Made by a program: the position numbers and the translations under genes | From: an uncultured Acidimicrobiaceae bacterium | GTDB lineage: Bacteria > Actinomycetota > Acidimicrobiia > Acidimicrobiales > MedAcidi-G1 | Direction: 5' to 3' | DNA length: 64,000 nt | Assembly (NCBI GenBank): GCA_963933065.1 | Contig: CAWVUB010000001.1 | Span: 1,508 to 65,507 of the forward strand | Shown here: positions 13,158 through 63,542 of the stretch, one piece after another | How positions within the stretch are numbered: position 1 is the first letter of the stretch | Layout: every line of letters begins with the position of its first letter | Notes under the pieces: model-generated | Told to the model about the DNA's origin: nothing | The model's input: only the letters and a program-made list of their open reading frames with translations | Databases searched by the model: none

Positions 13158-13311
13158 CTGTTTAGATACCTGTTTGACGGCTCTGGGGTCCTGGACTTTC
13201 ATAAGTTGGCTTTTGGTGAACTCTGCTGACCAGAACCGCCTCCGAGCGCTTGTCGAGACGGGGTCTCCATGACCATCGGGGCGGCTAAACCCCCTCGGTA
13301 CGCTGGAAAAC

Positions 13312-40869: not shown

Positions 40870-40871
40870 CG

Positions 40872-44771: not shown

Positions 44772-45509
44772 GTGTTAGATCATGGGGTTTCCCACTGTTT
44801 GGCCTGGTGGGCAGAAGATGGGCTGATGGCTGGGCTGCTGAATCTCCAGGTGCGCAGCGGCTCGGTTGATGTACGACCGGCCCGATTTGAATTCGGGTTG
44901 GTGGAAGTGGCAGAGCCGTCAGTGCTGATTGTTGATCATGATGTGCTGCCGCCACGTGGTGGTGGACTGGAAATTCGAGCATCAGGTCTCTGGGCTGAGG
45001 TGGTAGTTGAAGAGCCACCCAGTGGTGAACGGGGGCATGTGGGAGTAGGACTGGAGGCGTTTGGGGTGGCTCTCGACGATCCAGAGGATGCTTGGAGAGG
45101 TGGTCCTGACCACCAGTTTCGTGGTGTACGAACCCCGGTGGGCCTAGATCTTGGTGGGGAGTCGATAGGTGCGCCTGTTGAGGGCCAATGGGGCGTAGGT
45201 GTGCCCTGTCGGGTCGTTGGTGAAGTGCTGACTGCTGACCGGGTGGTCGACCTTGATGGTTGGGGCTGGTGGCTTGTAGGAGAGTGTGATTCGGTTGCAG
45301 CAACTGCGTTGGTGCGCCTCGATGATGGGACTTGGGACCCGCCGGATGTTGAACCAACCAGTTGGCAGATCGACAACTTGGTCGGTCGATTCCCGATTCT
45401 TAGGAGTGGTTCAGGAGGTGTGGTGAGGAAGATCGACCGTCGGTTCGGCACTGTTGTTCATGTAGACGGGCGTCGCGGGCTCGGCTGGATTGAGGAGCGT
45501 TTGTCCTAG
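44772..45509 (+). CDS. Hypothetical protein (245 aa)
   Basis: Starts 5 nt after the previous gene. Gly/Trp/Val-rich, probably beta-rich. No recognised motif. Confidence 0.4.
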   Translation: MLDHGVSHCLAWWAEDGLMAGLLNLQVRSGSVDVRPARFEFGLVEVAEPSVLIVDHDVLPPRGGGLEIRASGLWAEVVVEEPPSGERGHVGVGLEAFGVALDDPEDAWRGGPDHQFRGVRTPVGLDLGGESIGAPVEGQWGVGVPCRVVGEVLTADRVVDLDGWGWWLVGECDSVAATALVRLDDGTWDPPDVEPTSWQIDNLVGRFPILRSGSGGVVRKIDRRFGTVVHVDGRRGLGWIEERLS

Positions 45510-46438
45510 TTGGCGTCTCTGTTGATTAGAGAACGTTGTCGAACCAGGCGCTCGACGCTAAGAACTACGACCACCATGCTGGCAGCTAGCAGGGTCGGTA
45601 CCACCAGACCACTGGCGGCATCGGGCCAGCCGACGGAAGTACCTTCCATGGACTCTTCGACATGGCGGCCGGCGACTCCAACACCGTTGGGCCAGGGCCA
45701 TAACACCCGTACCGATCCAAGCAGTAGTCCCACCATGGCGGCCAGCACCTCGTCTGGATGATCAGCCAAAAGTCGGGCCAGCAGTGTCGAGAAGCAGACC
45801 AGACCGACCAAGGCGCCACCCCCGAAGATTGCAGCTTCGATTATCATCCGATCATCGACTATGTCGAGCATCGCGGTGTACATGCCCAGCATGAGTAGAA
45901 GAAACGAGCCGGAGATTCCTGGTAGGACCATTGCGCAAATAGCTATGGCACCTGACGCGAACAGCGCCGCTGCGGATGGCTCATCCAAGGGCGCGCTCTG
46001 CCAGCCCAACGCTACGAATAGGGCCATGCCGATGGCGCCAGCGATGGTGACACGACGTGCAGTCCAATTTACGTCCTTCTGGACGACTATTACTGAAGCG
46101 CCCACTAAACCCATGAAGAGTCCAGCCATTGGTTCAGGATGCTCCACGAGGGCGTTTTCGATCACACTGGCGAGCAGCACTACGGCGGCAAGGAGTCCTA
46201 TCAGCAGTGGGATGAGGAATCCCCAGTCGATGCGGGTGAACTGACGGACTGCTCCACGGAGATCGCCTCTGATGAGGCGGCGGATGGCCTTCCCACCATT
46301 GTCGATATTGACGATGAGACGGTTGTAGATACCAGTAAGTAGGGCAACTGTGCCGCCGGAGACACCGGGAACCAGATCGGCGGCACCCATAGCTGCACCC
46401 CGACCAACTAGTCCCACGGTTTTTCGCAGGCTGGTCAT
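45506..46438 (-). CDS. DUF368-family membrane protein (family implicated in undecaprenyl-phosphate recycling)
   Basis: LVPGVSGGTVALLTGIY near the N-terminus with a second LPGISGSFLLLMLGMY repeat. Polytopic. Confidence 0.75.
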   Translation of the reverse strand: MTSLRKTVGLVGRGAAMGAADLVPGVSGGTVALLTGIYNRLIVNIDNGGKAIRRLIRGDLRGAVRQFTRIDWGFLIPLLIGLLAAVVLLASVIENALVEHPEPMAGLFMGLVGASVIVVQKDVNWTARRVTIAGAIGMALFVALGWQSAPLDEPSAAALFASGAIAICAMVLPGISGSFLLLMLGMYTAMLDIVDDRMIIEAAIFGGGALVGLVCFSTLLARLLADHPDEVLAAMVGLLLGSVRVLWPWPNGVGVAGRHVEESMEGTSVGWPDAASGLVVPTLLAASMVVVVLSVERLVRQRSLINRDAN

Positions 46439-48278: not shown

Positions 48279-49061
48279 CTAGTGCTGTCCGGCTAACGCT
48301 CGATTCTTTATCTTTGCCTTCATATAGTCCCGGTTCATGAATGCAATGAAATCCAGTGAGATCTCCTTTGGGCACGCCGCAGAGCATTCACCATGGTTGG
48401 TGCATGAGCCGAAGAACTCTTCCATGGTCTCGACCATGGTTTCGGTCCGACTCCACCGTTCAGCCTGACCTTGAGGCAGGAGTCCAAGGTGGCCGATCTT
48501 GGCCGATGTGAATAATTGGGCAGCGGAGTTAGGGCAGGCCGCTACACAGGCACCACACCCGATGCACGCCGCAGCATCGAACGCCATGTCGGCAGCCGCT
48601 TTGGGCACCGGGGTGAGATTGGCTTCGGACGCAGCACCAGTATTGACCGAGATGTAGCCTCCGGATTCGATGATGCGGTCCAGCGGCGAGCGGTCTACGG
48701 CTAAATCCCGAATTACCGGGAAGCCGGCGGCTCGGAACGGCTCAACGACAATCTGATCTCCGTCATTGAACTCTCTCATATGTAGTTGGCATGTGGCCGT
48801 GGCCTTCTGTGGCCCGTGAGCTCGACCGTTTATCATCACACCACAAGTGCCACAAATACCCTCTCGGCAGTCGCTCTCGAAGGCCAACGGTTCAGTGCCA
48901 ACCTCGTTGAGTTGCTCGTTGAGCTGATCAAGCATCTCTAGGAATGAGGCGTCTGTGCTGATGGTTTGTTGGTGGACTTCGAACCCCCCAGTGTCAGTTG
49001 GGCCGTCTTGGCGCCATACCTTCAGGGTTACGTTGATGGTCTCGCCATGTCCAGAACTCAT
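48279..49061 (-). CDS. sdhB: Succinate dehydrogenase/fumarate reductase iron-sulfur subunit
   Basis: CREGICGTC, CIGCGACVAACP and CTNHGECSAACP cluster motifs. Confidence 0.9.
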   Translation of the reverse strand: MSSGHGETINVTLKVWRQDGPTDTGGFEVHQQTISTDASFLEMLDQLNEQLNEVGTEPLAFESDCREGICGTCGVMINGRAHGPQKATATCQLHMREFNDGDQIVVEPFRAAGFPVIRDLAVDRSPLDRIIESGGYISVNTGAASEANLTPVPKAAADMAFDAAACIGCGACVAACPNSAAQLFTSAKIGHLGLLPQGQAERWSRTETMVETMEEFFGSCTNHGECSAACPKEISLDFIAFMNRDYMKAKIKNRALAGQH

Positions 49062-49087
49062 GTCGAACCTCTCCTTCTAGCCTGCGT

Positions 49088-51052
49088 TTACTTGTACGAG
49101 CGCTGTGATAGCGCCACGTTTTCGAATGACAACTCCTCGCGGTGGCGGGTCTGGGCAGTGCCCACCCCATTCCATTCCCAGGCAGCGACATGTGAAAAGT
49201 TCTCGTCGTCTCGTTGCGCCTCACCGTCGTCTGTTTGGTGCTCCTCACGAAAGTGGCCCCCTGCCGATTCTTCCCGTTCCAGAGCATCTCGAGCCATCAA
49301 TTCTGCCAACTCAAAGAAGTCGGCCACCCGGCCAGCTTTTTCCAGTGACTGATTGAGTGTCTCTGCGCTGCCTAACACTCTCACATTGGTTTGGAACTCC
49401 TCGCGCAAGGTGGGGATCTCGCTGAGCGCCTTCTCCAAGCCGACTTTGCTACGAGCCATCCCGATGTAATCCCAAACGATCCGACCCAACTCACGGTGGT
49501 AATAGTCGACCGAGTGGGTGCCGTTGATTGACAGCCATCGTTGCTGTTCATTTTTAACTTCAGCCACTGCATTGGTGAACACTGGATCGTCGGTGGGCAC
49601 AGCCTGCTGTCCCAGCATGTCGGCAAGGTTGTCACCAATCGTGTACGGCAACACGAAGTAGCCATCCGCCAGTCCTTGCATGAGGGCACTGGCCCCAAGC
49701 CGATTGGCACCGTGGTCAGAAAAGTTGGCCTCGCCTATTGCGTACAGGCTGGGGATAGTTGTCATCAGGTTGTAGTCCACCCAAAGTCCACCCATCGTGT
49801 AGTGGATTGCCGGGTAGATCCTCATTGGCTGTTCGTACGGGTTTTCACCAGTGATGCGTTGATACATGTCGAAGAGGTTTCCGTACTTGGCTGAGATGGC
49901 CTCCGCTCCGTCGCGGGCGATGGCCGCTGCGAAGTCGAGATAGACCCCATTTTTCAATGGACCAACGCCACGGTTCTCGTCGCAAACCGTCTTGGCGTTA
50001 CGCGAGGCAACATCCCGGGGCACCAAGTTACCAAAGGCTGGATATTTGCGTTCCAAATAGTAGTCGCGGTCAACCTCGGGAATGTCGGCTGCCGGTCGGC
50101 TGTCGTCGAACCCTTCGGGCACCCAAATCCGACCGTCATTGCGGAGCGATTCCGACATGAGGGTGAGTTTTGACTGGAAGTCGTCACTTACCGGAATACA
50201 GGTCGGGTGGATTTGAGTGAAGCAGGGATTCGCGAAAAAGGCTCCTTCTCGATGGGCCCGCCAGGCTGCTGTGACATTACACATCATGGCGTTGGTCGAG
50301 AGAAAGTAGACGTTGCCGTAGCCGCCAGTTGCAAGAACTACAGCGTGGGCTGAGTGTGAGGTGACTTCCCCGGACAGAAGGTCCCGAACAATGATGCCGC
50401 AGGCCCGACCATCCTTGACCACTACCTTAAGCATCTCTGAGCGGGTGTGTAACTCCACGGTGCCTGCACCGACCTGGCGCATCAGCGCCGAGTAGGCACC
50501 CACCAGTAACTGTTGGCCGGTTTGGCCTCGGGCGTAGAAGGTACGTGAGACCTGGGCTCCACCAAATGACCGATTATCCAGAAGCCCCCCGTAATCGCGG
50601 GCAAATGGCACACCCTGTGCGGTGGCTTGGTCGATGATGTTGACTGACACCTCGGCTAGGCGATGGACGTTGGCCTCCCGGGATCGGTAGTCGCCTCCCT
50701 TAACGGTGTCGTAGAAGAGCCGGTGCACTGAGTCACCATCGTTCGTGTAGTTCTTAGCCCCATTGATGCCGCCTTGGGCCGCGATGGAGTGAGCCCGGCG
50801 AGGGCTGTCGTGAAAGGTGAAGGCCTTAACCCGGTAGCCAAGTTCACCAAGGGAGGCTGCCGCCGATGCACCTGCCAGTCCAGTGCCAACCACGATTACT
50901 TCGAACTTGCGCTTGTTGTTGGGGTTAACCAACTTCATAGAGAACTTATGGTTCTCCCATTTAGTGGCAATGTCACCGGGAGGGACTCGTCCATTGAGAG
51001 TCGGGTTTTCTGTTCTAGGGGTCTCTGGCATCGAAGCGTTCATCTCATTCAT
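49088..51052 (-). CDS. sdhA: Succinate dehydrogenase/fumarate reductase flavoprotein subunit
   Basis: [22 protein letters not shown] (FAD-His) and HYTMGG motifs. ATG 51052 preferred as the start (GGAGAA RBS). Confidence 0.92.
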
Positions 51053-51069
51053 GTGGTCGTTTCTCCGGC

Positions 51070-51909
51070 TCAGTGATCTAGTGCCTGTTCGGCAAGGCAC
51101 GCGTTGCCCTCGATCTCACCGATCGGGCAGTGCCGTTCGTCCTCATCGATCAGTCCAGCCTGAGTCAGAACTGGAAAACTCAGGTTGCCGACCAAGATAA
51201 GGCCAGCCAAAACGGTAGCCAAGCTCCTGCGTAGTTTGTTGTAACGCGGGTTGTTCACGCCGAGGCTCTGGAACATCGACCACGCCCCGTGGAAGATGTG
51301 CCATGCCAGTGCCACGTTGGCAACTACGTAGAGAATGGCCACCGGCAGGTTGCCCAGTGATGTGGACACGTTGTGGTATGGGTCGCCGGGTACGAAGGCA
51401 TCACCCAGCCACCACCCCCAGGTCAGGTCGGCCAGGTGGTAGAACACGAAGAGAGCGATGATGGGCCCAGTCCAGCGCATTGTGCGACTGGCAAACGTTG
51501 CAGCCACATGGTCGCGGCCACCTTCGTACTTCTTGACTCCGCTGATCCGACTGGCGTTTTCGCTGGCGTTGCCGCTCATTCGGCTCAGAGTGATCGCTGA
51601 GTGCAAGTGCAGAACAAACATGCCAAGCAGGCCAACGCGGAGGAGCCACAGAACGGCACCTTTCGGGATCAGACCACTTCCTAGAGTGCGAAGCGACTCG
51701 GCGTACTCGTGCATCCGGGCTGGGCCTTCGTACACGTGGAGGTTGCCAATCATGTGGACCAGCACGAAGCCGATTAAGCCAATGCCTGTGATGGCCATGA
51801 CCCACTTGCGGCCTACAGCGCTCTGGTACAGGTTCAGTGGGAAAGGGTATTGGCGACCTTGAGGTCGAATCGGCGCCACGCGGTAGCGCTGATCAGTGGT
51901 CTGGGCCAT
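51070..51909 (-). CDS. sdhC: Succinate dehydrogenase cytochrome b subunit (b558-type, Sdh1-like)
   Basis: About 279 aa and polytopic with conserved His residues. ATG 51909 is preceded by GAGGAGGAG. Gene order is sdhC-A-B. Confidence 0.75.
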
Positions 51910-51981
51910 GGTCTCCTCCTCGCGTGTCAACCCCAGAGCGGCGGGCGGGGCGACTTCTACCCGGATGGTAGCGGGCGCTGT

Positions 51982-54108
51982 TCAGTCAGCACCGATACGG
52001 CCTTCGTAGCGGTTGGTTACTGTATGGCCCCCGTCGATAGTCAGCCCTAATTCGAGAACTACTGATCCGGTTGCATCACCGAGAGGAAGCTCGAAGGTCC
52101 CAATCATGGTGACTGAATCGGCCTCGAGAGATCCTCCCCATGATCGTTCAACAACTAGTTCCTTAGTTTTGATGAGGAGACGACTGTCTACTCTGCATTG
52201 GGAAATTGGTTCGCGGCCGTCGTGCACGACAAACACCTGGGTCCGGAGAGTTGAGCGGGGGGCGATGGATTCCAGCGGTGGGTCAGCCACTACGATCGTT
52301 GGAGCGCACGCTGCCATGACAGTTGCATATGCAGGCTTAGGAACCCGTCGGTAGTCGACCAGGGACCCGGAGATAGCCGCCGCCCCATCGAGTAGACGGT
52401 CCAGAGTAAACCCCCCGGTAGGCCGATACTTACGTCGGCGCAAAGCCTCAATCTGGATTCGTAGCAGACGGGCCTGGTGTTCACGGGTGCTGGACGCCCA
52501 CTCTTGGGGACCTGGGTGATCACCAGGGGGAAAGCGGCGGGTGATTACGTCTGCCTCTGCGCCATGGTCCTTAGCGAGACGCTGGAGGTCGATTTTGGGC
52601 CACGATGCGGGGTCCAGCGTCCCATCGGTTAAGGCTGGCGACTCGTGGGGAACTGACTGCGTTCCAAAAGCTGCGACAAAACGACCGGCTCGTGCCACTC
52701 GGTCCACGTACTCGGCCAAGTCACCACGCCGTCCGCTGTACCACCCGAACCATAGGTGGACGGCCGCATCGTCGATTCGTGGTGGGTTGGGCAGCACGCC
52801 AGAGTGGCTAATTACTGGGCGAGACGGATCGGCTTGCTCGAGAGAGCGGCGCACAGAACGGTCTAGGACTGTCCGATTCCACGTAGGGATTTGCTGGTCT
52901 ATTTGGCGGGGGACAGCCCGGGTCCGATCTACAGGATCGGGGACATCGTGAGCGCACCAAACTATTACTGACGGATGGTGCCCCAAAAGGTCGACCACAT
53001 CTCGGGCTTGTCGGGCCGCTTGGTTCCGGATCCCCCTGTGGTAGCCACCGGTTAGGGGCAGGTCCTGCCACAGCAACATGCCGGTTCGGTCGGCTTCGGC
53101 GTACAGCTCAGGGGCCGACACGTGTCCGATCATCCTGAGGAAGTTCAAACCGGCATCGCGCGCCAGAGTCAAGTCGGTAGTTGTTGATTCGAGAGTCACT
53201 CGAGATAGGTCGCGGTCTAGTGGTGGGACAATCGCCCCCCGGAGGAAAAGTCGTTGTCCGTTTATTGACCAGATCTGATTGCGCATGTGAACAGAGCGAA
53301 AACCAGTGCGACGTAACGCCCGGTCGCTTACTTGGCCGTCTTCGGTCGCCACGATTAATTCCACATCGTGCAGATGCTGTTCACCCATTTCGGCAGGCCA
53401 CCACAGTGGTGGCCTGGGGACCCGAATAGACCATTCGACCCGATTCTCGCCACCAGCCAATGGCTGTCGATGACGGTGGTCGATGCCCAGCACTTTCGTG
53501 TGGAAGATCGCTTCCCGAGGCCGGTCAGCGTGAACTACTGCCCGAAAGGTCAGGGTGGCCACTGATTCTGTTGCCCTGCTGCACAACACCCGGATGTGTA
53601 GTAGGGGAACTGGGCCGGTCTCACGCAATTGGACATGGCGTCCGATCCCACCAGGGTTCCATGCGGCGATGCCCCGGCCGCCTTGGGTAGTCCCGGTAAG
53701 AGTCCGCTTCTCGTCCGGTTTACCAATGGGTGGGCATGTGGCTTCCACAGCCAGAAGATGGTCGGAGCGGGCGCGGGCGGCGGCAGTGATTTCCAATAGG
53801 TGAGGAGTGAATGAGCCTTCAGTGGGGCCGAGGTATGAACCGTCGAGCCACACATCTCCCTGGCACGTAACGCCGGCAAATTCTAAAAATGTACGTCGTT
53901 CGGCTCCCGGTGGCGTAGTGGTGAACTGGGTCCGGTACAGCATCGGCCCATCAGAATCTGTGAAGGCCTGTGTGCTTCGCCAAGAGCCAGGGACAGTGAC
54001 CTCCAGCCAGTTTCTGTCATCGAGACTTTCGAGTGGAAAGTCGCGCCGGAGTACTTCGTCAGCTTCAATGGCCCGCCACGGACCAGGTAGCGCCTCAGAG
54101 TGTTCCAT
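51982..54108 (-). CDS. Glycoside hydrolase family 2-like protein (beta-mannosidase-like) lacking consensus catalytic glutamates
   Basis: Sugar-binding N-domain, PLWWP..MGEQ, LLWQDLPL, HPSVIVWCAHDV (family: WCGNNE) and RFVAAFGTQSVP (family: F-x-SEFG-x-QS-x-P). Confidence 0.7.
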   Translation of the reverse strand: MEHSEALPGPWRAIEADEVLRRDFPLESLDDRNWLEVTVPGSWRSTQAFTDSDGPMLYRTQFTTTPPGAERRTFLEFAGVTCQGDVWLDGSYLGPTEGSFTPHLLEITAAARARSDHLLAVEATCPPIGKPDEKRTLTGTTQGGRGIAAWNPGGIGRHVQLRETGPVPLLHIRVLCSRATESVATLTFRAVVHADRPREAIFHTKVLGIDHRHRQPLAGGENRVEWSIRVPRPPLWWPAEMGEQHLHDVELIVATEDGQVSDRALRRTGFRSVHMRNQIWSINGQRLFLRGAIVPPLDRDLSRVTLESTTTDLTLARDAGLNFLRMIGHVSAPELYAEADRTGMLLWQDLPLTGGYHRGIRNQAARQARDVVDLLGHHPSVIVWCAHDVPDPVDRTRAVPRQIDQQIPTWNRTVLDRSVRRSLEQADPSRPVISHSGVLPNPPRIDDAAVHLWFGWYSGRRGDLAEYVDRVARAGRFVAAFGTQSVPHESPALTDGTLDPASWPKIDLQRLAKDHGAEADVITRRFPPGDHPGPQEWASSTREHQARLLRIQIEALRRRKYRPTGGFTLDRLLDGAAAISGSLVDYRRVPKPAYATVMAACAPTIVVADPPLESIAPRSTLRTQVFVVHDGREPISQCRVDSRLLIKTKELVVERSWGGSLEADSVTMIGTFELPLGDATGSVVLELGLTIDGGHTVTNRYEGRIGAD

Positions 54109-54348
54109 GACCTGACGCTAGGCCTCCGACAGACAACTCTTGATTCTACTGCTGGAAGTTGGAGGTTCTCTCGACCGGAAGACCCTTCGTCTGAGATGGT
54201 CAGTACTGTTGAACTGGTCCTAGAGGGGTTGCATTTATCCCAAAGACCAAACAAGCAGACCTTAAGGCTCAGGATCTTTTTACCTCGCTAGAAGTGAAGC
54301 CTCCCAAGACGGAGATTCCAAGATCAAATTCTCTAGAGGTGCAGGGCA

Positions 54349-55656
54349 TTAAGAGAACGATGGGGGGGCGGGACGTCCAGTTATTTGTTCAGATAACCAT
54401 CGCCCGCTGTCCTTTAGCCTGCGGTCCCGGGTGACTAGCCCACGGGGCCCAGCAAAACCCGGCGCCGTTCCCCAGCCTGCGGTTGCGTAGCCGTCCAACA
54501 GGGAGTCGTGGAATAAGCCCACGACGGGTATTCCATCCTCTACCGCTGATTCGATTTGTGCGATTACATCTCGGAGCATTTCCTCGCGCCACTCGTCGTC
54601 GGTGGTTGATACTCCCCAGCCAGCCACTACTAGGTCCCGACCGTTGAGTCTGTGATGGATCTGCCGGAGGACTACTCCTAGTTCTTCGGGTAGTGGAGCG
54701 GCACCCGTGGCGTCCACTCGGGCATTGGGTGGATATGGGCCGGGGGTACCGCTGGCGTCCACCCTTACCGGGTGGTCACCAACTAGGCCAATGAGGTCAA
54801 AGGCGCCAGCCAACTCAGGTCGATCAGTTGGGGTTCGCCACGGCCAGGCCAACTCTCCGTCGGCTAGTGCCCGAAGCCACGAATCCCATAGCACTCGTTT
54901 CCAGTGAAGGGCCTGTTCACGCTCCAGGTTGTTATTTTTGGAACTGGATTGGTCATGGCCAATACCATCGTCAGGTAATGCAGCAAAGATGGATGGGGCA
55001 GCGAAAACGCCCATGACCGGAGCGTTACCGCTCTGAAGCAGTCGGCAGGCGTCAAAATTTGCTTCGAGCGCGCCTTCGAGGACTACGCGAGCTTTCTCAG
55101 GGTTAGTCCGACCAGGGGGACGGACGCCTAGTAGGTGGCCACGGACCGTTGAACCGATCGGATCCTCGATGGGTACCCATCCGGCTGTCAGATCTTCTAA
55201 GGCTTCGGCGGTGCGGTCTACATGCCGGGCCCACCAACTACTCCGACTTGATGTTTCGGCAAACCCTCCTTCGTCATCGACGAACCAACCCGGGAGCGTT
55301 CCGTTCACCAGTGTGACCCATGGTTGTATCCCAATATCAACAGCTGAGGAGAGAATGCTTCGGGCCTGTTCAAGTGCGCGACCATCGAGCACTCCGGGTC
55401 GAGGTTCCAAGCGGGCCCATTCGATGGTGATGCGTATGTCGGTGAATCCCAGAGCAGCGGCAAGGCGGAGGTCATCGACATAATCGCTAGCGAAACCTGC
55501 TCCAGCGCCGGAGGTTGAAACCCGACCATCGTCTTCCCAACGTGACCAATCGGCGGCCGGTGCTACCCCTTCGGCCGACAGAGACGAGTCGGTTACACCC
55601 CATCGAAATTCCTTCCCATGCAGTTCAGACGGTGTGCTCGTTTCTCGGGTGAGCAT
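54349..55656 (-). CDS. Glycoside hydrolase family 1-like protein lacking the nucleophile glutamate
   Basis: The protein is colinear with GH1 (FRWGV..AEG; IRITIEWARLEP; WVPIEDP for the W-x-T-x-NEP motif; LVVAGWG for the ITENG motif; GLFHDSLLDGY for the GYF-WSL-DNFEW motif; LKDSGRW). Confidence 0.7.
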   Translation of the reverse strand: MLTRETSTPSELHGKEFRWGVTDSSLSAEGVAPAADWSRWEDDGRVSTSGAGAGFASDYVDDLRLAAALGFTDIRITIEWARLEPRPGVLDGRALEQARSILSSAVDIGIQPWVTLVNGTLPGWFVDDEGGFAETSSRSSWWARHVDRTAEALEDLTAGWVPIEDPIGSTVRGHLLGVRPPGRTNPEKARVVLEGALEANFDACRLLQSGNAPVMGVFAAPSIFAALPDDGIGHDQSSSKNNNLEREQALHWKRVLWDSWLRALADGELAWPWRTPTDRPELAGAFDLIGLVGDHPVRVDASGTPGPYPPNARVDATGAAPLPEELGVVLRQIHHRLNGRDLVVAGWGVSTTDDEWREEMLRDVIAQIESAVEDGIPVVGLFHDSLLDGYATAGWGTAPGFAGPRGLVTRDRRLKDSGRWLSEQITGRPAPPSFS

Positions 55657-55663
55657 GCTGATC

Positions 55664-56509
55664 TCAGCCGTGTCGTGTCATTACACCGGAGTCGAAGACC
55701 ACCCGGTCGCTGACCCGAGTCTGGAACAGCACGGTGGCGTCTTCGGTCTCCCAGATATGAACATCAAGGACCTCACCGGGCATGACCGGTGACTTAAAAC
55801 GCCCACTCATGCTGCCGAAGCGGCTCGGATCTGATCCACAGACGGCGTGTAGAAGTGCCCGCCCAGTGAATCCGTAGGTGCAAAGGCCGTGAAGGATTGG
55901 TCGGTCAAATCCGGCCGCTGAGGCGAACGTCGGATCGGAATGTAGTGGGTTTCTGTCGCCACTGAGTCGATAAATTAGGGCTTGATCGGCTCTAGTGGCG
56001 TATGAGACCACGTGATCAGCATCTCGGTTGGGTGCCGCCCAGTCGGTAGCGGGGCCGCGGTCGCCGCCCCAACCGCCTTCACCGCCGATAAACAGGCCTG
56101 AACTGGTGGACCACAACGGCTTGCCGTCAGGGTCAGCGACTTCGGTCTCGAGGTACACGAGAGCCGCTTTACCCTTGTCCCAAATTGGCCCAACTTTTCC
56201 GATGGCCATGCCGGTGCCCTCAGCGGGGATCTCTCGATAGCAAGTTATGGATTGTTCAGCATGGAGTAGGAAGACTGGGTTAAAACTGCCAAAGTCTGGG
56301 GTGCTACCTCCACCCATCACTACGACCTGGGTGGGGAAGGTCCGTTGGGTAATCCCGTTGGAATTCTCGGTTGTGAACTCCAACTCAAAACCAGTGGGGT
56401 CGGCCACACCGGCTCCGATACCGAGGGCGTACAGCAGACTCTGCTTAGAGGTCCAGGAGATTTCAGTGGGCTGGCCGGTTGATCCGGTGGAATCTGGGTT
56501 TATTGGCAT
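55664..56509 (-). CDS. MaoC-family double-hotdog (R)-specific enoyl-CoA hydratase/dehydratase
   Basis: 281 aa. YRLSGDRNPLHSDP and ILHGLCTYG are typical of the MaoC dehydratase domain. Confidence 0.75.
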   Translation of the reverse strand: MPINPDSTGSTGQPTEISWTSKQSLLYALGIGAGVADPTGFELEFTTENSNGITQRTFPTQVVVMGGGSTPDFGSFNPVFLLHAEQSITCYREIPAEGTGMAIGKVGPIWDKGKAALVYLETEVADPDGKPLWSTSSGLFIGGEGGWGGDRGPATDWAAPNRDADHVVSYATRADQALIYRLSGDRNPLHSDPTFASAAGFDRPILHGLCTYGFTGRALLHAVCGSDPSRFGSMSGRFKSPVMPGEVLDVHIWETEDATVLFQTRVSDRVVFDSGVMTRHG

Positions 56510-57080
56510 CGTGGCTCCCGTGGGCTCGTGATTTCGTCGACTCTGTGGTCGTTGGATGGGCCAATTATCTGACCCACCTCAACGTCAACGCTACGGTCAG
56601 TTTGTGGAGTATCCGAATTAGGGCTTGGTCCAGCGACAACGTTGTGGAGTCGACGACGGAGACGAGGTCCTGAGTCGCGTCGCGTCATCTACTTCTGGTG
56701 GACCGCACACTTCGAGTAGCCCAGCGCTGCACTCGTGAGGACATACGGATCAATGTGTCCACAGTGGACACCACGCGCCGTCTGACTCGGTTTGTTGAGT
56801 AGACAATTCTGCTGAACAGGGGGCAGGCCTGTATGACCGATGATTGAGAACTTAGCGATTGCGTGTTAATCGACTTTGTCGAACACCCTCGAATGGTTCG
56901 TTCTCGCCGTTGATCAGGTTGAGTTCGCGCCGTGGCGATCGTGTGCGAATTCAACAGGTGGCTTATCTGTAGGGATAAAATCATGATTTCTCTTGCAATT
57001 AGGGGAATGACAGTGGTGTAATTCCAATAGAGGAACTTCTTTGGAGGTTCTGGGGAACCAAAACCGGTTCCAGCGGCCGG

Positions 57081-57094
57081 ATCGACCGGTCGAT
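57081..57094. promoter_or_regulatory. Perfect 14-bp palindrome 27 nt upstream of the whiB2-like start
   Basis: ATCGACCGGTCGAT read directly from the sequence. Confidence 0.25.
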
Positions 57095-57120
57095 TAACCG
57101 GTGAAAGGCGTAACAGCACG

Positions 57121-57405
57121 ATGGGAATGATCGCAAAACCTGATCTAGACACGGAATGGAAGGACTCGTCGAACTGTCTTGGCGTGGATCCTGACCTGTT
57201 TTTTCCTGAGCGCGGGGCCAGCACTCGAGAGGCTAAAGAAGTGTGTCGGGGATGCATCGTGAGAGAGGACTGTCTGGAGTACGCGCTGTTGAACGGCGAG
57301 AAGTTTGGCATCTGGGGTGGAATGAGTGAGCGAGAGCGTCGTCGAATCCGGCGACAGCGCGCCTTGGAACGTCAGGCTGTTGCCCGAACCGCTGAGGCTG
57401 TGTGA
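57121..57405 (+). CDS. whiB2: WhiB-family regulator, WhiB2/WhmD-like
   Basis: CLGVDPDLFFPERGASTREAKEVCRGCIVREDCLEYALLNGEKFGIWGGMSERERRR is close to my recollection of WhiB2/WhmD. Confidence 0.8.
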   Translation: MGMIAKPDLDTEWKDSSNCLGVDPDLFFPERGASTREAKEVCRGCIVREDCLEYALLNGEKFGIWGGMSERERRRIRRQRALERQAVARTAEAV

Positions 57406-57497
57406 GTGTCGTTCCTAGCAAAGATTTGTTTTGCTAAGAAGTTCTTTGATGGATCGAGTGCTGTGCCCAGCGGTTGGACAGTGAGTAGAGTCCTGTT

Positions 57498-57686
57498 ATG
57501 AGCACTCTCGCATTCTTGGGAACCCAGGAACTGATTATCGTTGCGGTCATTGCCTTGGTTCTGTTTGGTGGAAACCAGATTCCAAAGTTGGCTCGTAACC
57601 TTGGTAAGGCCCAAAAAGAACTCCAGAAGGGGCTGGCTGAGGGCCAAGCGGCAGTTGATGCTGAGCCTGATACGGACAGCAGTTAA
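57498..57686 (+). CDS. tatA: Twin-arginine translocase subunit TatA/E
   Basis: 62 aa. TM helix followed by FGGNQIPKLARNLGKAQKEL, an amphipathic helix. Confidence 0.85.
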   Translation: MSTLAFLGTQELIIVAVIALVLFGGNQIPKLARNLGKAQKELQKGLAEGQAAVDAEPDTDSS

Positions 57687-57758
57687 GCCCGAGCACTTTC
57701 TGATCGGTCTAATGTCGGCCACCCGGTGCCCCTAGGGCCACCGGTACACTTCCCGACC

Positions 57759-58037
57759 ATGAGCAGTCACCCCGACGATCTTCCTCCCCAGCCACCGGTC
57801 GGCGACTTAAAGGTCGTCTATCTTGGACCAGCCGCCCCTCACTGGGAGGTCCGGTCAAATTTTGGCGACCCGCGCTTAATCGAGTCTTTCCGCGACCGTG
57901 TGCAGGCTCGACTTATGTTGTTGCCGCCTCACGATCCCCAGTTCCGACGTAACCGGGAGCGAATTAACCGCGATGCTGAGCGCGAGAACGTGCTTATCTC
58001 CTGGGACCTCGGGTACGAAGAGGAAGACTCGGCCTGA
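57759..58037 (+). CDS. Hypothetical protein
   Basis: ATG 57759 (MSSHPDD...); the ORF opens at 57726. Charged C-terminus. No motif recognised. Confidence 0.35.
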   Translation: MSSHPDDLPPQPPVGDLKVVYLGPAAPHWEVRSNFGDPRLIESFRDRVQARLMLLPPHDPQFRRNRERINRDAERENVLISWDLGYEEEDSA

Positions 58038-58164
58038 TACGGCCCTAGATGCCTCCATGGGGGCAACTAGGTGCCGAAAACGACATCAGCCCCAACGCTT
58101 GGTTCGTCGGGGCTGATGCCGCAATGAGGGGTGAGGAGGGAACTACCCCTCAGGACTTTCTTTT

Positions 58165-58503
58165 TTAGGCTGCCACTGCAATGAACCCGTTGTTTCGTGC
58201 TGCCGCCCGCCGAGAGCGCAAGATTCTTCGCCGCTGGCGTTCGGAGCATCCACCCCAGACGCCGTGTTCGATTCGGTTGGCTAGTGCGTAGTTCAGGCAT
58301 GGCTCAGTGATTTGGCAATCTGCACAGATCTTCTTGGCGAGTTCAACTCCGACACCGTCGTGGGGGAAGAAGACGTTGGGGTTGCTGCCGGCGCACGCAC
58401 CGAGCGACATCCATGTAGATGCTGACCCCTCTGAGTCAAAGGGGTTTTCTGCTTTGTGGAAATTTTTCGGATTGTGTGAAATTTCTAGAAGTTGGGTGTT
58501 CAT
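58165..58503 (-). CDS. WhiB-family Fe-S transcriptional regulator
   Basis: GACAG...CADCQITEPC plus GVWGG and a basic tail. An alternative internal start at MSLGAC is possible. Confidence 0.8.
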   Translation of the reverse strand: MNTQLLEISHNPKNFHKAENPFDSEGSASTWMSLGACAGSNPNVFFPHDGVGVELAKKICADCQITEPCLNYALANRIEHGVWGGCSERQRRRILRSRRAAARNNGFIAVAA

Positions 58504-58720
58504 GTCGATTTATCTCTCATTCCTTTGACTCGTTTCGCAGCCCGAGTCGGTGGCCGCTCCGCCCAGACGATCGCCCCGGACAACACAGTTCTCTCACATT
58601 GGACTTAAAACCTCCGTAAAGAGAGGTTTAAAGAAAGTTCGACAAGGTCTGTTGGGGCGTCGTAGTCAGGTAGCGGAACCTTCTGCCCGCAACCAGCTTG
58701 AAGTGTCTGGTGGGTGAGTC

Positions 58721-58741
58721 CGAATCACTTAAAGTGATTCG
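58721..58741. promoter_or_regulatory. Perfect 21-bp palindrome (10-1-10), operator-like
   Basis: CGAATCACTT-A-AAGTGATTCG lies between the divergent whiB-family gene and the Na/Pi transporter gene. Confidence 0.3.
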
Positions 58742-58762
58742 TTTACCTTTTGTTTACCTAAC
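58741..58762 (+). promoter_or_regulatory. Candidate PHO box (two 11-nt direct repeat units, core GTTTACC)
   Basis: GTTTACCTTTT GTTTACCTAAC lies about 100-125 nt upstream of the Na/Pi transporter start. There is one mismatch per core to the GTTCACC PhoP unit. Confidence 0.35.
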
Positions 58763-58862
58763 GGACAGGCAGAAGCAAGGTAAGAAATCTAAGTTACAAC
58801 TGACCGAGTGGTCGGATGTCTCAGATTCCGGCCTTCTTAGCAAAAGCGATGGGCCGGCGTAA

Positions 58863-60032
58863 TTGAACATGATTGAATCTGTGAGTGATTTGCCCTCCCT
58901 TAACCGGGTTGGTTCCTCTCAGAGAGAAATGCCCACTTTGGCTCGAGCTGCGCTCGTTGTGGCCCTGCTGTATCTGTTCCTTACCGGTGTCGAGTTACTC
59001 AGTGGTGGCTTCAAGACAATGGGCAAGGGTTTTGTCGACGGCCTTTTCGAAGGAGTCTCCAATCCATTGGCTGGCCTGTTCGTTGGCTTGTTGGCTACGG
59101 TGCTTGTGCAGTCGTCGTCAGTGTCGACGTCGGTGATCGTCGGCCTAGTTGCCTCGGGGGTTGTCGGCTCTAGCGAGGCTGTACCGATGGTCATGGGCGC
59201 CAATCTCGGTACGACGGTCACCAACACACTCGCTTCGCTTGGTCACATGCGCCGCGACAACGAATTTCGTCGGGCGTTTGCTGCCGCGACTGTCCACGAC
59301 CTCTTCAACATTCTCGCTGTCGCTGTATTTCTGCCGATCGAACTAGCCACTGGTTACCTATCAAAGACAGCCACTTGGATTACCGGGAAGGTGCTGGGGA
59401 GTTCTGGCGCGTCCTTTAAGAGCCCCTTAAAGACAGCAGTAAAGAAACCGGCTGGCATCGTCAAGGACCTTTTGTCGGATGTTGGTGCCCACGGCAACTG
59501 GAAGGGCGGGCTGATGATTGCCATTGGCCTTGCTTTTATCTTCCTGGCGTTGGCTTTCATCACCCGAAACATGCGGCTCTTGGTCGCCGACCGGGTTGAG
59601 GCTGCAATAAACCGGGCACTAGGAGCTGGGTCAGGGATTGTTGCCATCATTTTGGGAACCATCATCACCATCTCGGTGCAGTCGTCTTCGATTACGACCT
59701 CTGTGCTCGTTCCTCTAGCTGCTTCTGGTGTATTGACGTTGGAAAACATTTATCCGGTGACCTTGGGGGCAAACGTGGGGACCACAGTCACTGCGCTGCT
59801 GGCGTCCTTGGCCACTGGCAACCCAGCGGCGGTCACTGTGGCCATCGTTCACACTCTCTTCAACATAAGTGGGATCCTAGTTTTCTATCCCTTGAAGGCT
59901 CTCCGTCGTATACCCGTCCGGCTGGCCACAGGACTGTCTTACCTGGCAGCGGAACGGCGCACTACTGCAGTTGCCTACGCGATAGGCATGTTTGTAGTGG
60001 TCCCCCTAGTCGGGGTGCTGCTTCTCCGATGA
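58863..60032 (+). CDS. Na+/phosphate cotransporter (NptA/type II-related) family protein
   Basis: Duplicated QSSS motifs (VQSSSVSTSVIVGL; VQSSSITTSVLVPL) and GANLGTT/GANVGTT. ATG 58869 is also a possible start. Confidence 0.75.
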   Translation: MNMIESVSDLPSLNRVGSSQREMPTLARAALVVALLYLFLTGVELLSGGFKTMGKGFVDGLFEGVSNPLAGLFVGLLATVLVQSSSVSTSVIVGLVASGVVGSSEAVPMVMGANLGTTVTNTLASLGHMRRDNEFRRAFAAATVHDLFNILAVAVFLPIELATGYLSKTATWITGKVLGSSGASFKSPLKTAVKKPAGIVKDLLSDVGAHGNWKGGLMIAIGLAFIFLALAFITRNMRLLVADRVEAAINRALGAGSGIVAIILGTIITISVQSSSITTSVLVPLAASGVLTLENIYPVTLGANVGTTVTALLASLATGNPAAVTVAIVHTLFNISGILVFYPLKALRRIPVRLATGLSYLAAERRTTAVAYAIGMFVVVPLVGVLLLR

Positions 60033-60123
60033 TGCCGTTGACGATTACTCGCTGCCTTACCGCCCCCACTGCGCTCGTTGCTGCCGGTACTGTCTCTATG
60101 GTGAAGTTAGGAGTAGTTACGCC

Positions 60124-60792
60124 ATGGTCATGAGTTTTTTTCGCCGCAAGGATGACAGCGGCATAGATCACATTGAGGCGCAGGTGCAGCGCATGGTCAC
60201 TGACGCTCGCCACACCTTCGACTTAGCCATGAACGCCATTACCGGTGGCTTAGTGTCTTCGGTAGCTGAAGAAGTAAGGCGCACTGACCGCCAGATCAAC
60301 ATCACCGAGATGGAAATTAGGCGAGAGCTTGTTGTGCATTTTTCAGTGCACGCCGGTGGAGACGCCACCGAAATGCTTGTGTTCATGAACATGGTTAAGG
60401 ACCTTGAACGCATCGGCGACTACAACAAGAACGTCTTTGACTTGGCTGAGGAAAGCGTGTCCTTCGCTGCAGCCGACGACCTCGAACGAATTCTTGGCTT
60501 CCGTGACGAAATCTCATCTCGGATCGCCTTGATGGGCGAGATTCTTACGGCTCGTGACGAGGAGCGGGCCAGGGCTTATATCGCCCGGGGTGACGAACTC
60601 CGCCAAGAGTTCGACGCCTTAGTCGCCGAACTAGTTCACTCCACCGAGCCCGGCCTGCACGCTGTACCCCGCGCCCTGCTCTACCGCTTCTTAAAGCGGA
60701 TCACTGCCCACAGTGTGAACGTGGTTACCGCCGTAGTCATGCCCGTTGACCGTCTCGATTACTTCGACGAACATGGCGATACCCGTATCTGA
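60124..60792 (+). CDS. PhoU-domain protein
   Basis: 222 aa, helical. DLERIGDYNKNVFDLAE resembles the PhoU E-x-IGD repeat. Follows the Na/Pi transporter. Confidence 0.65.
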   Translation: MVMSFFRRKDDSGIDHIEAQVQRMVTDARHTFDLAMNAITGGLVSSVAEEVRRTDRQINITEMEIRRELVVHFSVHAGGDATEMLVFMNMVKDLERIGDYNKNVFDLAEESVSFAAADDLERILGFRDEISSRIALMGEILTARDEERARAYIARGDELRQEFDALVAELVHSTEPGLHAVPRALLYRFLKRITAHSVNVVTAVVMPVDRLDYFDEHGDTRI

Positions 60793-60866
60793 CCGAGGTT
60801 TAGCCCTTTTTGATACTGCGGTGACCAAGCGGCCCAACTGGTGGCGTCAGCCCCTAGGGTCAAAGT

Positions 60867-61658
60867 GTGCGGATCTTAGTCACCAACGATGATGGAATCT
60901 CCTCGCCTGGTTTACACGCGCTTGCTGTCGCTGTAGCTGAAGAGGGTCACGAACCGGTAATCGCAGCGCCCTCGAGCGACTGGAGTGGGGCATCAGCCTG
61001 TCTTGGCCCCCTCGACGATCCTGACCGCGTACGAGTCGAACGAGTGAATCTCGATGGTTTGCCGACTATTGGCTACGCCGTGGGAGCTCCACCGGCGCTG
61101 ATCACCATGTTGGCTGACTTGGGCGGCTTTGGACCTCCCCCAGATTTAGTGGTGGCTGGCATCAACCGAGGCCTGAATACCGGACGTTCAACCTTGTTTT
61201 CAGGAACGATTGGGGCTATTTTGGCTGGTGAGCGATTCGGTCTTTCCGGTATGGCAGTGAGCGCTGACGTTCAGGTGACTGGGGCTCTAGGCGCTGATGG
61301 ACCAGTCCATTGGGAAACCGCTGCTGCAGTGGCTAAGACAGTCCTACCGTGGTTAATCTCCGCCCCGAGCCGCACGTTGCTAAATCTGAACGTCCCTGAC
61401 CTAGCCCTGACTGAGATTCAGGGCATTCGGTGGGCTGGCTTAGCCCCAGTGGGCGGAGTTCGGACGGTCATTACAGGAAATGACCCGACTGGTCTAAACC
61501 TCGACTTAGTGACCAATGATGAGCTCATGCCTGACAGCTCTGATACAGCGCTAGTGCGCTCTGGTTGGACGACGGTGACCCCGCTGGTGCCCACCAGCGC
61601 AGCCAAGATGTCCCTGCCCGTCGACAAGTGGGAACGGGCGCTCGGGCTGGGAGACTGA
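60867..61658 (+). CDS. surE: 5'/3'-nucleotidase SurE
   Basis: MRILVTNDDGISSPGL and GINRGLNTG, SGTIGA motifs. Confidence 0.9.
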   Translation: MRILVTNDDGISSPGLHALAVAVAEEGHEPVIAAPSSDWSGASACLGPLDDPDRVRVERVNLDGLPTIGYAVGAPPALITMLADLGGFGPPPDLVVAGINRGLNTGRSTLFSGTIGAILAGERFGLSGMAVSADVQVTGALGADGPVHWETAAAVAKTVLPWLISAPSRTLLNLNVPDLALTEIQGIRWAGLAPVGGVRTVITGNDPTGLNLDLVTNDELMPDSSDTALVRSGWTTVTPLVPTSAAKMSLPVDKWERALGLGD

Positions 61659-61755
61659 CCCCGTGGGTATCGCCGGTCGTCGACGACGTACGGATCATTT
61701 CAGGCATCGCACTGCTTCTTCTGGTCAGCCACCAGGTAGCCGAGTGGCTTCTGAA

Positions 61756-62796
61756 ATGGGCGTAACCACGTCGGGTCCTACAAGTGCTGAGGCCCTTGAC
61801 ATGTTGTCGACGGGGATCGTGCTGGCCGACAGGACCGGGCAGATGGTCCGCCGAAACGCAGCTGCTGATGCTCTAGTTGACTCGTGGGACGATGGGGTCG
61901 TGGGCCGACGAGTACTGGAGCGTCTCAGTGATGCGGTACGCCCCGGTGCCAGCGCAACCATCGAGCAGGTCCGTACCCCTGGGGTGCAGCCTCGGGTGTA
62001 CGAGGTAACTGTCCGACCGGTAGGTACTGGGTCACCCATTGGTCAGATCACTAATGGGGCAGTGGCTCTGTTTGAAGACATTACGGAGAGGGTTCGAGTC
62101 GAGGCGGTCCGGCGAGACTTTGTAGCCAATGTAAGCCATGAGCTCAAAACGCCAGTGGGAGCAATCAGCCTTCTAGCAGAGGCGCTGGAGGGTGAACGAG
62201 ATCCGGAAGTGGTGGAACGACTCACTGGTCGTATTGGGAATGAGGCCCGACGTGTCTCCGGTCTGGTAGAGGATCTATTGGATCTGCGGTCTATTGAGGA
62301 GGGTGATGTTGGAGGGGCCACGACTGTGGATTTGGTTGAGGTCGCTGCCGAAGTTCTCGAACGAGTTGAGCCGTTGGCCCAAAGGCGAGGCGTTTCTCTT
62401 AAGGCAGAACTACCTGCATCGGCCGAGGTCATCGGGATCCACACTCAGTTACTGAGTCTGTTACGGAACTTGGTAGAAAACGGCGTGAAGTACTCGGATA
62501 CCGGCGGTTCAGTGCAACTTAATATTGCTAAAAACGGCAATGAGATAGTGGTGCGGGTAACCGACCGAGGAATGGGGATCCCTCAGCGCGACCACGACAG
62601 GGTCTTCGAGCGCTTTTACAGGGTGGACCGGGCGCGAACTCGAGACACTGGCGGTTCTGGTTTGGGCCTGTCGATTGTTCGCAATGTCGTGCAAGGGCAC
62701 AGGGGCAACGTAGAACTGACGTCTCAGGAGGGTGAGGGGACGACGGTGACAGTGCGTCTGCCAATAGGGCTAGTGCCGCCAGAGGCGGACCATTGA
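61756..62796 (+). CDS. senX3: PAS-containing sensor histidine kinase, SenX3-like
   Basis: RRDFVANVSHELKTP H-box, N-box NLVENGVKYS, DRGMGI and GGSGLGLSIV. ATG 61756 is preferred as the start; the ORF opens at GTG 61663 with an Arg-rich, non-protein-like leader. Confidence 0.75.
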   Translation: MGVTTSGPTSAEALDMLSTGIVLADRTGQMVRRNAAADALVDSWDDGVVGRRVLERLSDAVRPGASATIEQVRTPGVQPRVYEVTVRPVGTGSPIGQITNGAVALFEDITERVRVEAVRRDFVANVSHELKTPVGAISLLAEALEGERDPEVVERLTGRIGNEARRVSGLVEDLLDLRSIEEGDVGGATTVDLVEVAAEVLERVEPLAQRRGVSLKAELPASAEVIGIHTQLLSLLRNLVENGVKYSDTGGSVQLNIAKNGNEIVVRVTDRGMGIPQRDHDRVFERFYRVDRARTRDTGGSGLGLSIVRNVVQGHRGNVELTSQEGEGTTVTVRLPIGLVPPEADH

Positions 62797-63542
62797 GCGC
62801 TGTTCGAGTCCTCGTTGTCGAAGACGAGCCTTCATTTGCTGATGCCCTTCAGGTTGGATTGGCCCGTGAGGGTTTTGAGGTCAATGTGGTGCACGACGGA
62901 GCTGCAGCGCTTGAGGTCTTTGACCAATGCCCTGTTGACTTGGTTTTGTTAGATCTGATGCTCCCCAAGTTGTCGGGCATTGACGTTTGTAGGGAGATCC
63001 GAACAAAGTCCACGGTGCCGATCATCATGGTGACAGCGCGTAGCGAAGAGTTAGACACGGTCGTTGGTCTGGAGGTGGGAGCAGACGACTACGTGACCAA
63101 GCCCTACCGGTTACGTGAGTTGGTGGCACGGATGCGGGCCGTGTTACGTCGCGTCGATACGAAAGCGCCCCTGGCTGATCGTGGTGCTAATAGTCCTACG
63201 GGGATAGATGAGGCCGTGCCAAACGCTGGCAGGGTGCAGGTGGGCGACGTCGTCGTCGACCGTGATCGTCACGAAGTCATCGTGGAAGGTGCTGTAGTGC
63301 CTATGCCGCTTCGAGAGTTTGAACTACTGGCCTTTCTCATGGAAAACGCCGGCCGTGTACTTACTAGGGATGTACTTATCGACCGGATATGGGGCTACGA
63401 CTACGTAGGTGATACCAAGACTCTTGATGTTCACGTTAAGCGGATTCGAACGCGTGTTGAGGAAGATCCCAAAAACCCAAACTTGATCGTCACCGTTCGA
63501 GGGGTTGGCTATAAGGCCGAACGTTTGACGCCTTCCCAATGA
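62793..63542 (+). CDS. regX3: OmpR-family response regulator, RegX3-like
   Basis: VLVVEDEPSFADAL, LLDLMLP, GADDYVTKPY and DYVGDTKTLDVHVKRIRTR are nearly colinear with mycobacterial RegX3. The inter-domain linker is about 15 aa longer. Confidence 0.8.
   Translation: MSAVRVLVVEDEPSFADALQVGLAREGFEVNVVHDGAAALEVFDQCPVDLVLLDLMLPKLSGIDVCREIRTKSTVPIIMVTARSEELDTVVGLEVGADDYVTKPYRLRELVARMRAVLRRVDTKAPLADRGANSPTGIDEAVPNAGRVQVGDVVVDRDRHEVIVEGAVVPMPLREFELLAFLMENAGRVLTRDVLIDRIWGYDYVGDTKTLDVHVKRIRTRVEEDPKNPNLIVTVRGVGYKAERLTPSQ

Follow-up and report, generated by a model that had tools for sequence, protein, structure and literature searches.

The stretch of DNA analysed here, referred to as the window, comprises 64,000 nucleotides (nt) of a contig from an uncultured Acidimicrobiaceae bacterium and carries six consecutive minus-strand genes, two of which encode homologues of glycoside hydrolases (GHs) whose catalytic glutamates have been replaced. 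In the direction of transcription, a gene for a MaoC-type double hot-dog (R)-hydratase (55664-56509, recognized from its open reading frame, ORF, and from family profiles) is followed by intact ORFs for a 435-residue protein resembling glycoside hydrolase family 1 (GH1-like; 54349-55656) and for a 708-residue protein with the architecture of family 2 β-mannosidases (GH2-like; 51982-54108), both cytoplasmic, and then by sdhC (b558 type), sdhA and sdhB of succinate dehydrogenase (48279-51909, with the sdhC ATG at 51909). The gap between the two GH-like genes measures 240 nt, while 72 nt separate the GH2-like stop codon from the sdhC ATG. Since the MaoC gene ends 7 nt before the GH1-like ATG, the two are probably co-transcribed in the lineage of the window. 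Each GH-like gene is present in a single copy in the genome, and no other GH1 or GH2 gene was found in the 2.48 Mb, 91%-complete assembly. The names given to the closest homologues agree with a placement in the Acidimicrobiia, order Acidimicrobiales. A sugar transporter or sugar regulator was not found within about 10 kb of the GH-like genes, nor a hydrophobic signal-like stretch at the N-terminus of either protein. An earlier note, made from this DNA alone, had described a co-oriented block with spacings of this kind, devoid of sugar transporter, regulator and signal peptides, and this description agrees with the layout found here: all of the genes lie on the minus strand, and the 7 nt and 72 nt intervals were confirmed.

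The GH1-like protein is a homologue of GH1 enzymes in both sequence and fold. It matches Pfam PF00232 with 64.3 bits (cut-off 22.6) and the β-glucosidase BGPh from Pyrococcus horikoshii (PDB 1VFF) with a phmmer E-value of 2.8e-28, and an AlphaFold2 model (mean predicted local distance difference test score, pLDDT, of 95.2) retrieved GH1 β-glucosidases as its best Foldseek matches, with template-modelling (TM) scores of about 0.8. The same (β/α)8 fold and a similar score relate it to BGPh and to SGR_2426 from Streptomyces griseus (PDB 8KAP), a β-glucosidase acting on β-1,2-glucooligosaccharides (PMC12369401). A residue-by-residue alignment to 1VFF nevertheless places I-E164-D165-P (codons 55162-55167, minus strand) over the FNEP motif at the end of β4, so that the acid/base glutamate is replaced by aspartate and the asparagine preceding it by glutamate, and V-A-G346-W-G (G346 codon 54619-54621, minus strand) over the ITENG motif at the end of β7, leaving a glycine in the place of the nucleophile. 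The Gln, Tyr, Trp, Glu and Trp that bind the glycone in subsite -1 have likewise been replaced, and, in contrast to GH1 β-glucosidases, no transporter or glycan-utilization cluster lies nearby. In the model, the altered residues lie at the C-terminal ends of strands β4, β6, β7 and β8. An alternative assignment, in which the segment TLVNGT would have corresponded to NEP, was rejected, as the structure-based alignment showed this segment to belong to a TL(H)H..P motif.

The domain architecture of the GH2-like protein is that of family 2. It matches PF22666 (30.0 bits, cut-off 27) and PF00703 (28.7 bits, cut-off 23), and although the Pfam TIM-barrel model PF02836 gave no match, its barrel aligns to β-mannosidases with an E-value of 5e-25. 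The five-domain architecture and the TIM barrel are shared with the 'group II' GH2 enzymes, namely the exo-β-mannanase XacMan2A (PDB 6BYC) and the β-mannosidases DtMan (PDB 5N6U) and BtMan2A (PDB 2JE8), whose chains of about 840-860 residues are longer than the 708 residues found here. The segments HPS..WC..(N)E and RF..E(F/Y)G.Q of these enzymes align unambiguously with the GH2-like protein. Comparison with 6BYC, 6BYG, 6BYI and 5N6U shows that WCGNNE of loop 4 has become WCAH-D388-V389 (D388-V389 codons 52942-52947, minus strand), the acid/base NE motif thus reading DV, and that SEYGLQS of loop 7 has become A-A480-FGTQS, with Ala480 (codon 52669-52671, minus strand) replacing the nucleophile, while the β2 arginine (R325) is retained. 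The AlphaFold2 model (pLDDT 92.3) places D388 at the end of β4 and A480 at the end of β7, and its best Foldseek matches are GH2 β-mannosidases (TMq 0.79). Both models were built on family alignments, and residues were assigned to strand ends from DSSP strings. For both proteins the motif alignments can be regarded as secure because conserved residues flank the motifs on both sides. The GH1-like protein thus descends from a β-glucosidase-type GH1 enzyme and the GH2-like protein from a 'group II' β-mannosidase-type GH2 enzyme, and with the residues aligned at their active sites neither can run the classical two-glutamate (Koshland) mechanism.

The replacements in the GH1-like protein are not peculiar to the window. 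About 96 relatives with 43-76% identity all display (E/D)-D-P, with the nucleophile replaced by Gly, Ala or Ser, and the altered sequences form a single, well supported monophyletic clade of 98 rows in the family tree. Within this clade the catalytic Glu is replaced by Asp165 in 100% of the rows, a Tyr by Asp294 in 83%, a Trp by Asp384 in 94%, an Asn by Gly389 in 99% and a Phe by Arg405 in 96%; D294, E325, D384, G389 and R405 are conserved specifically in the clade. The canonical NEP and E-x-G motifs are kept in syntenic orthologues from other Acidimicrobiia. In one family, represented by class-level genomes (L045-L049), the slot of the GH1-like gene is occupied by ORFs of only about 314-356 residues, which adjoin a canonical GH2-like gene and align to the GH1-like protein over no more than its N-terminal half; judged from these ORFs, the GH1-like gene of this family is strongly degenerate or truncated.

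A different pattern emerged for the GH2-like family, in which the state of the nucleophile changes at least nine times on a tree of 139 rows, at least five of them on well supported branches, and the state of the acid/base at least five times. The clade of the window comprises 41 rows with the motifs H-D-x-P and S-A-F-G. Loss of the nucleophile is closely associated with an aspartate at the asparagine position of the NE motif, which is found in 67/68 nucleophile-less rows and in 5/71 nucleophile-bearing rows; of five phylogenetically independent pairs, about 4.6 show both traits changing in the same direction, and none shows them changing in opposite ones. The replacement of the nucleophile is almost always Ala or Gly, and a further 80 species representatives show the same combination of Asn→Asp with Glu→Ala/Gly. 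Both independent lineages in which the acid/base glutamate is lost as well have acquired an extra aspartate in the loop formed by residues 446-449; in the protein from the window this is D447, gained alongside a change of D322 to Asn. The residues lining the pocket are the most conserved part of the protein in all clades, and conservation reaches at least 95% for R325, H329, W347/Q348/D349 and W384/C385/H387, whether the clade is canonical or altered. Since random decay would not be expected to pick the same residues each time, these patterns point to a repeated functional switch rather than to decay. The replacement of Tyr453 by Trp, also considered as a tracker of nucleophile loss, follows it only in part, as 21 nucleophile-bearing rows carry the Trp as well, and it was not relied upon.

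Both genes are maintained by purifying selection. Nei-Gojobori estimates of the ratio of nonsynonymous to synonymous substitution rates (dN/dS), for which the related contigs L027, L028 and L029/L030 served as the three comparators of the window, were 0.08-0.15 (GH1-like gene), 0.07-0.15 (GH2-like gene), 0.08-0.16 (sdhC), 0.05-0.08 (MaoC gene) and 0.02-0.08 (sdhA and sdhB). The same losses occur in intact frames in the GH1-like relatives mentioned above and in more than 40 GH2-like relatives, and frames stay undisrupted across the altered clades, over a range of 43-92% identity. Neither the frameshifts nor the relaxed selection that would mark simple pseudogenization were seen in either gene. 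The earlier note had proposed that both nucleophiles are lost and that the genes are nevertheless retained rather than decaying at random, and both proposals are upheld, the former by the alignments to solved structures and the latter by dN/dS values like those of sdhC and by the intact frames of relatives. The acid/base position, which that note did not discuss, is altered in both proteins as well.

Taken together, these observations are best accounted for, with a probability of roughly 0.5, by two separate descendants of cytoplasmic retaining glycosidases, each under selection for a function that would depend on its pocket, and acting independently of each other. Each protein would still work through a rebuilt barrel pocket that is conserved within its clade. 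For the GH2-like protein, the most likely function, although at slightly less than even odds, would be a pocket-dependent chemistry requiring no nucleophile from the enzyme. There, Asp388 takes the place of the asparagine that contacts the C2 position of the substrate; the small residue replacing the nucleophile beside the invariant Arg325 would leave a cavity and an unpaired positive charge; and a new aspartate (D447) appears to have arisen when the acid/base glutamate was lost. At such a site the substrate might assist catalysis with one of its own groups, or a bound anion, for instance phosphate, might carry out the attack; the substrate could be a C2-modified or charged glycoside. The GH1-like protein, whose pocket is predicted to be acidic (E164, D165, D294 and D384), may with about equal likelihood be an altered enzyme or a non-catalytic ligand binder.

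Parts of this arrangement have counterparts in characterized families. Substitutions of the NE motif are known in the GH2 subfamilies GH2_16 (SD), GH2_14 (SE) and GH2_19 (TV, NA or NQ; PDB 7XYR), and in GH2_21 the acid/base is replaced, with another glutamate proposed as its substitute (PMC12243196). As in the GH2-like protein, the acid/base motif of these four subfamilies is substituted in an otherwise conserved GH2 pocket, and the relocated acid proposed for GH2_21 is comparable to D447; however, they all keep the nucleophile, while the GH2-like family has lost it repeatedly and together with the Asn→Asp change. In GlmA, an archaeal exo-β-glucosaminidase of family GH35, an aspartate preceding the acid/base glutamate reads the C2 amine of the substrate (PMC6566704). 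GlmA belongs, like the families considered here, to clan GH-A, and its Asp-Glu motif recurs in those relatives of the GH2-like protein that display H-D-E-P, but it keeps both the nucleophile and the acid/base, whereas the GH2-like protein from the window has neither glutamate. The hexosaminidases of families GH20 (with a D-E pair) and GH84 (with a carboxylate pair), whose barrels are likewise of the TIM type, employ a substrate-assisted mechanism that relies on adjacent carboxylates and dispenses with an enzyme nucleophile (PMC10570127). A comparable logic may be read in E164-D165 combined with G346 of the GH1-like protein and in the H-D-E-P/S-A-F-G relatives of the GH2-like protein, while the latter protein itself offers one of the two carboxylates (D388-V389, with A480); neither protein is homologous to GH20 or GH84 enzymes.

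Several observations weigh against pocket-dependent chemistry. In the clade of the window the acid/base position of the GH2-like protein is variable (Ala, Ser, Thr, Val, Asn, Asp or Gly), and His327 of loop 2 is lost, which weakens any hydrolase model; moreover, with five independent events, the sign test for the joint change of nucleophile and NE asparagine cannot fall below p = 0.0625. Among GH1-like orthologues the Asn of NEP has been replaced in many ways (by Leu, Ala, Phe, His or Asp), and in some lineages the protein is truncated to 320-360 residues. The patterns of loss in this protein look more like dispensable catalysis than like a directed switch, because they are so varied and are accompanied by truncations in one family and deletions within the genus, where the gene itself is in places dispensable. 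Finally, Glu→Ala and Glu→Gly are the classical substrate-trapping mutations, and a role restricted to binding fits them equally well.

The alternative that survives best is that both proteins are true pseudoenzymes, in which the fold has been kept for ligand binding, sequestration, sensing or the docking of a partner such as the succinate dehydrogenase encoded alongside or the MoxR/VWA chaperone pair, and catalysis is dispensable. This is a substantial possibility, if on the whole the less probable one, and for the GH2-like protein it is nearly as likely as an altered chemistry. It accommodates the many losses of catalytic residues in different patterns, especially in the GH1-like family, the lack of constraint on the acid/base position in the GH2-like clade of the window, and the disappearance of several residues of subsite -1, which in the GH2-like protein include H327 and D322. 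The substitutions in the window are also exactly those of the engineered substrate-trapping mutants 6BYG (E575A) and 9U98 (E318G, in complex with sophorose), which bind their substrates and do not hydrolyse them. Klotho is an animal GH1 pseudoenzyme. In contrast to the engineered mutants and to Klotho, the proteins from the window are natural, ancient and under purifying selection, and carry many additional changes in the pocket. Random loss leaves unexplained the near-constant pairing of Asn→Asp with Glu→Ala/Gly and the compensating new aspartate. Also against this alternative, conservation in the GH2-like protein is highest, whatever the clade, in the residues that line the pocket, and neither protein possesses an output domain.

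The docking variant of the pseudoenzyme explanation draws on the gene neighbourhood. Among species-representative loci, the GH2-like gene adjoins genes of the succinate dehydrogenase/fumarate reductase (Sdh/Frd) type in 46 of 61 informative cases, namely a co-directional sdhCAB in 30, a convergent sdhCAB in ten and a different SdhA-like flavoprotein in six, and it adjoins a MoxR-type AAA gene in 41/64. Fumarate reductase is a binding partner of RavA-ViaA, a MoxR/VWA pair of Escherichia coli (PMC10585395), an analogy that makes an Sdh-related role for this neighbourhood a possible lead. On the other hand, the GH2-like gene persists where the AAA and VWA genes have been lost, which weighs on this lead, and sdhCAB may be expressed separately. 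Indeed, the 72-nt spacer contains an element, GCTACCAT (51965-51972, minus strand), with a -10-like TACCAT (51965-51970) located 56 nt upstream of the sdhC ATG. In an alignment of spacers from the genus, it recurs as GCTACC(A/C)T in at least eight related spacers whose lengths and remaining sequence vary, which suggests that sdhCAB has its own promoter, the element itself being a putative one. A promoter and terminator scan returned fewer hits than shuffled sequence and is given no weight. The longest sdhA ORF (49088-51100, minus strand) begins with a GTG at position 51100 and would share 31 nt with sdhC; as the sdhA genes of relatives are called about 16-19 codons shorter (651-654 residues), the true start probably lies downstream of this GTG.

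Beyond the two proteins of the window, the GH2-like family, and less cleanly the GH1-like family, might record a natural and recurrent change of mechanism, in which a classical two-glutamate site has been converted many times independently to a nucleophile-less one, possibly substrate-assisted or dependent on an anion such as phosphate and acting on a C2-modified sugar. As a generalization this is regarded as rather unlikely. The conversion would consist of Asn→Asp at the C2-contacting position together with replacement of the nucleophile glutamate by Ala or Gly beside the retained arginine, with the acid relocating afterwards in some lineages. A survey of GH2 subfamilies published in 2025 describes the nucleophile as an invariant glutamate assisted by a conserved β2 arginine, which corresponds to the retained R325, and records substitutions in the NE motif only, such as SD in glucosaminidases, TV, NA or NQ in GH2_19, where their consequences are given as unknown, and the relocated acid of GH2_21; the β-mannosidase-related group gathers activities on C2-modified sugars (PMC12243196). 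Literature searches retrieved no account of these Acidimicrobiia clades or of bacterial GH1 or GH2 families lacking the nucleophile. What appears to be new here is that the supposedly invariant GH2 nucleophile has, to judge from the tree, been lost at least five to nine times, almost always in combination with Asn→Asp.

The contiguity of the two GH-like genes is a recent feature of the window. Contigs from across the class indicate that the ancestral order in the Acidimicrobiales was an Rv0959-like VWA gene on the minus strand, the GH1-like gene on the plus strand, a MoxR-type AAA_5 gene on the minus strand, the GH2-like gene on the plus strand and sdhCAB, and this neighbourhood, with its Sdh/Frd-type genes, is conserved throughout the order (L031-L050 and L061-L140). 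In relatives, the GH1-like and GH2-like genes are separated by the opposite-strand AAA gene and often by more genes; this gene is still in place and intact in L028 and in the closest relative, L027 (GCA_029242745.1), which has an intact VWA gene as well and whose GH-like proteins are 92% and 88% identical to those of the window. Inside the 240-nt gap of the window, a tblastn search with the AAA_5 protein of L027 revealed a frameshifted 3' remnant of a MoxR-type, Rv0958-like AAA_5 gene (54196-54340, plus strand), in which residues 443-465 and 466-490 match in two different frames with a combined E-value of 2e-06. Likewise, tblastn identified, upstream of the MaoC gene, a 3' remnant of the AAA_5 gene's partner, an Rv0959-like VWA gene (56698-56895, plus strand; 65% identity over 66 residues, E = 2e-18), and this remnant contains two in-frame stop codons. 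Given both remnants and the intact AAA gene in L027 and L028, the adjacency in the window is a recent deletion scar. A 208-residue minus-strand ORF (56685-57311) overlapping the VWA remnant is probably spurious. The lineage of L029 and L030 has lost the same AAA/VWA pair independently, which fits the two genes working together. These two contigs encode an identical GH2-like protein and differ in sdhA, L029 being about 270 nt shorter there (13172-14915); no full sdhA was called in L029, which could reflect an assembly artefact or a real disruption.

This history bears on the suggestion of the earlier note that the two genes form a conserved tandem pair, acting as a two-protein module possibly together with MaoC and Sdh, which the comparative data largely refute and which is now very improbable. 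In its favour, the two genes lie 2-17 kb apart on one contig in most Acidimicrobiia that possess both, and in a 200-genome sample of the class about 25 genomes have strong matches (E ≤ 1e-50) to both, where roughly 13 would be expected by chance. The same tally, however, includes about 15 genomes with the GH1-like gene only and about 40 with the GH2-like gene only, and both ancestrally and in the closest relative the opposite-strand AAA_5 gene stands between the two. Within the genus of the window, the GH2-like gene was found in 19/19 other genomes and the GH1-like gene in 11/19; on the contiguous contigs of four genus genomes without the latter, the MaoC gene abuts the AAA or the GH2-like gene, indicating clean deletions, and the GH1-like gene is dispensable within the genus. 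In many other Acidimicrobiales, the VWA and AAA genes are directly adjacent, without a GH1-like gene. Nor do the substitutions in the two proteins co-occur: syntenic orthologues combine a canonical GH1-like with an altered GH2-like protein (L034, L035 and L037) or an altered GH1-like with a canonical GH2-like protein (L036), and both-canonical and both-altered loci also exist, so that the catalytic states of the two genes vary independently. A functional link to MaoC was abandoned as well, as its gene precedes the GH1-like gene only in some lineages (in the family of the window, and not in most other Acidimicrobiia) and stays in place after deletion of the GH1-like gene.

Slow pseudogenization, in which both genes would be dead and on their way to being lost, is the least credible of the explanations: although some genomes of the genus have lost the GH1-like gene by deletion, one family has it in truncated or degenerate form, and the GH2-like gene is split into pieces in a few genomes (G122, G087 and G110), both frames are intact with dN/dS of about 0.1 at dS of 0.4-2, the divergent altered clades are free of frame disruption, the GH2-like gene is present in every other genome of the genus that was searched, the structure models are highly confident, and the truly dead AAA and VWA genes of the same window are already broken remnants.

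Catalytically altered homologues of glycosidases are usually dismissed as annotation noise, whereas the two described here are strongly selected in genomes of small size (about 2-2.5 Mb), and the GH2-like one was found in every genome of the genus that was searched. The nucleophile of GH2 counts as invariant in a recent survey of the whole family. The combinations of Asn→Asp and Glu→Ala/Gly provide a natural test series, from canonical sites through D-E with Ala to D-x with Ala and a new Asp, which bears on whether the scaffold of a retaining glycosidase can switch mechanism or become a binding protein. If the recurrent nucleophile-less conversion proved to be true, it would represent a natural change of mechanism inside clan GH-A families whose nucleophile has been taken for invariant. 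As a practical consequence, genes of Acidimicrobiia annotated as 'β-glucosidase' or 'β-mannosidase' should not be taken as a measure of the capacity to degrade carbohydrates.

A few other genes surround the locus. The sole sugar- or envelope-related genes near the GH-like pair are a DUF368 gene of the 'undecaprenyl phosphate translocase-like' type (45506-46438, minus strand) and a PIG-L family gene (MshB/Mca-like GlcNAc de-N-acetylase; 40839-41654, plus strand), which lie 6-11 kb downstream of the sdh genes. On the other side of the locus, the region 57121-63542 begins with two WhiB-like genes (57121-57405, plus strand, and 58165-58503, minus strand), followed by a phosphate-type cluster that encodes a Na/Pi cotransporter, PhoU, SurE, a histidine kinase and a response regulator.

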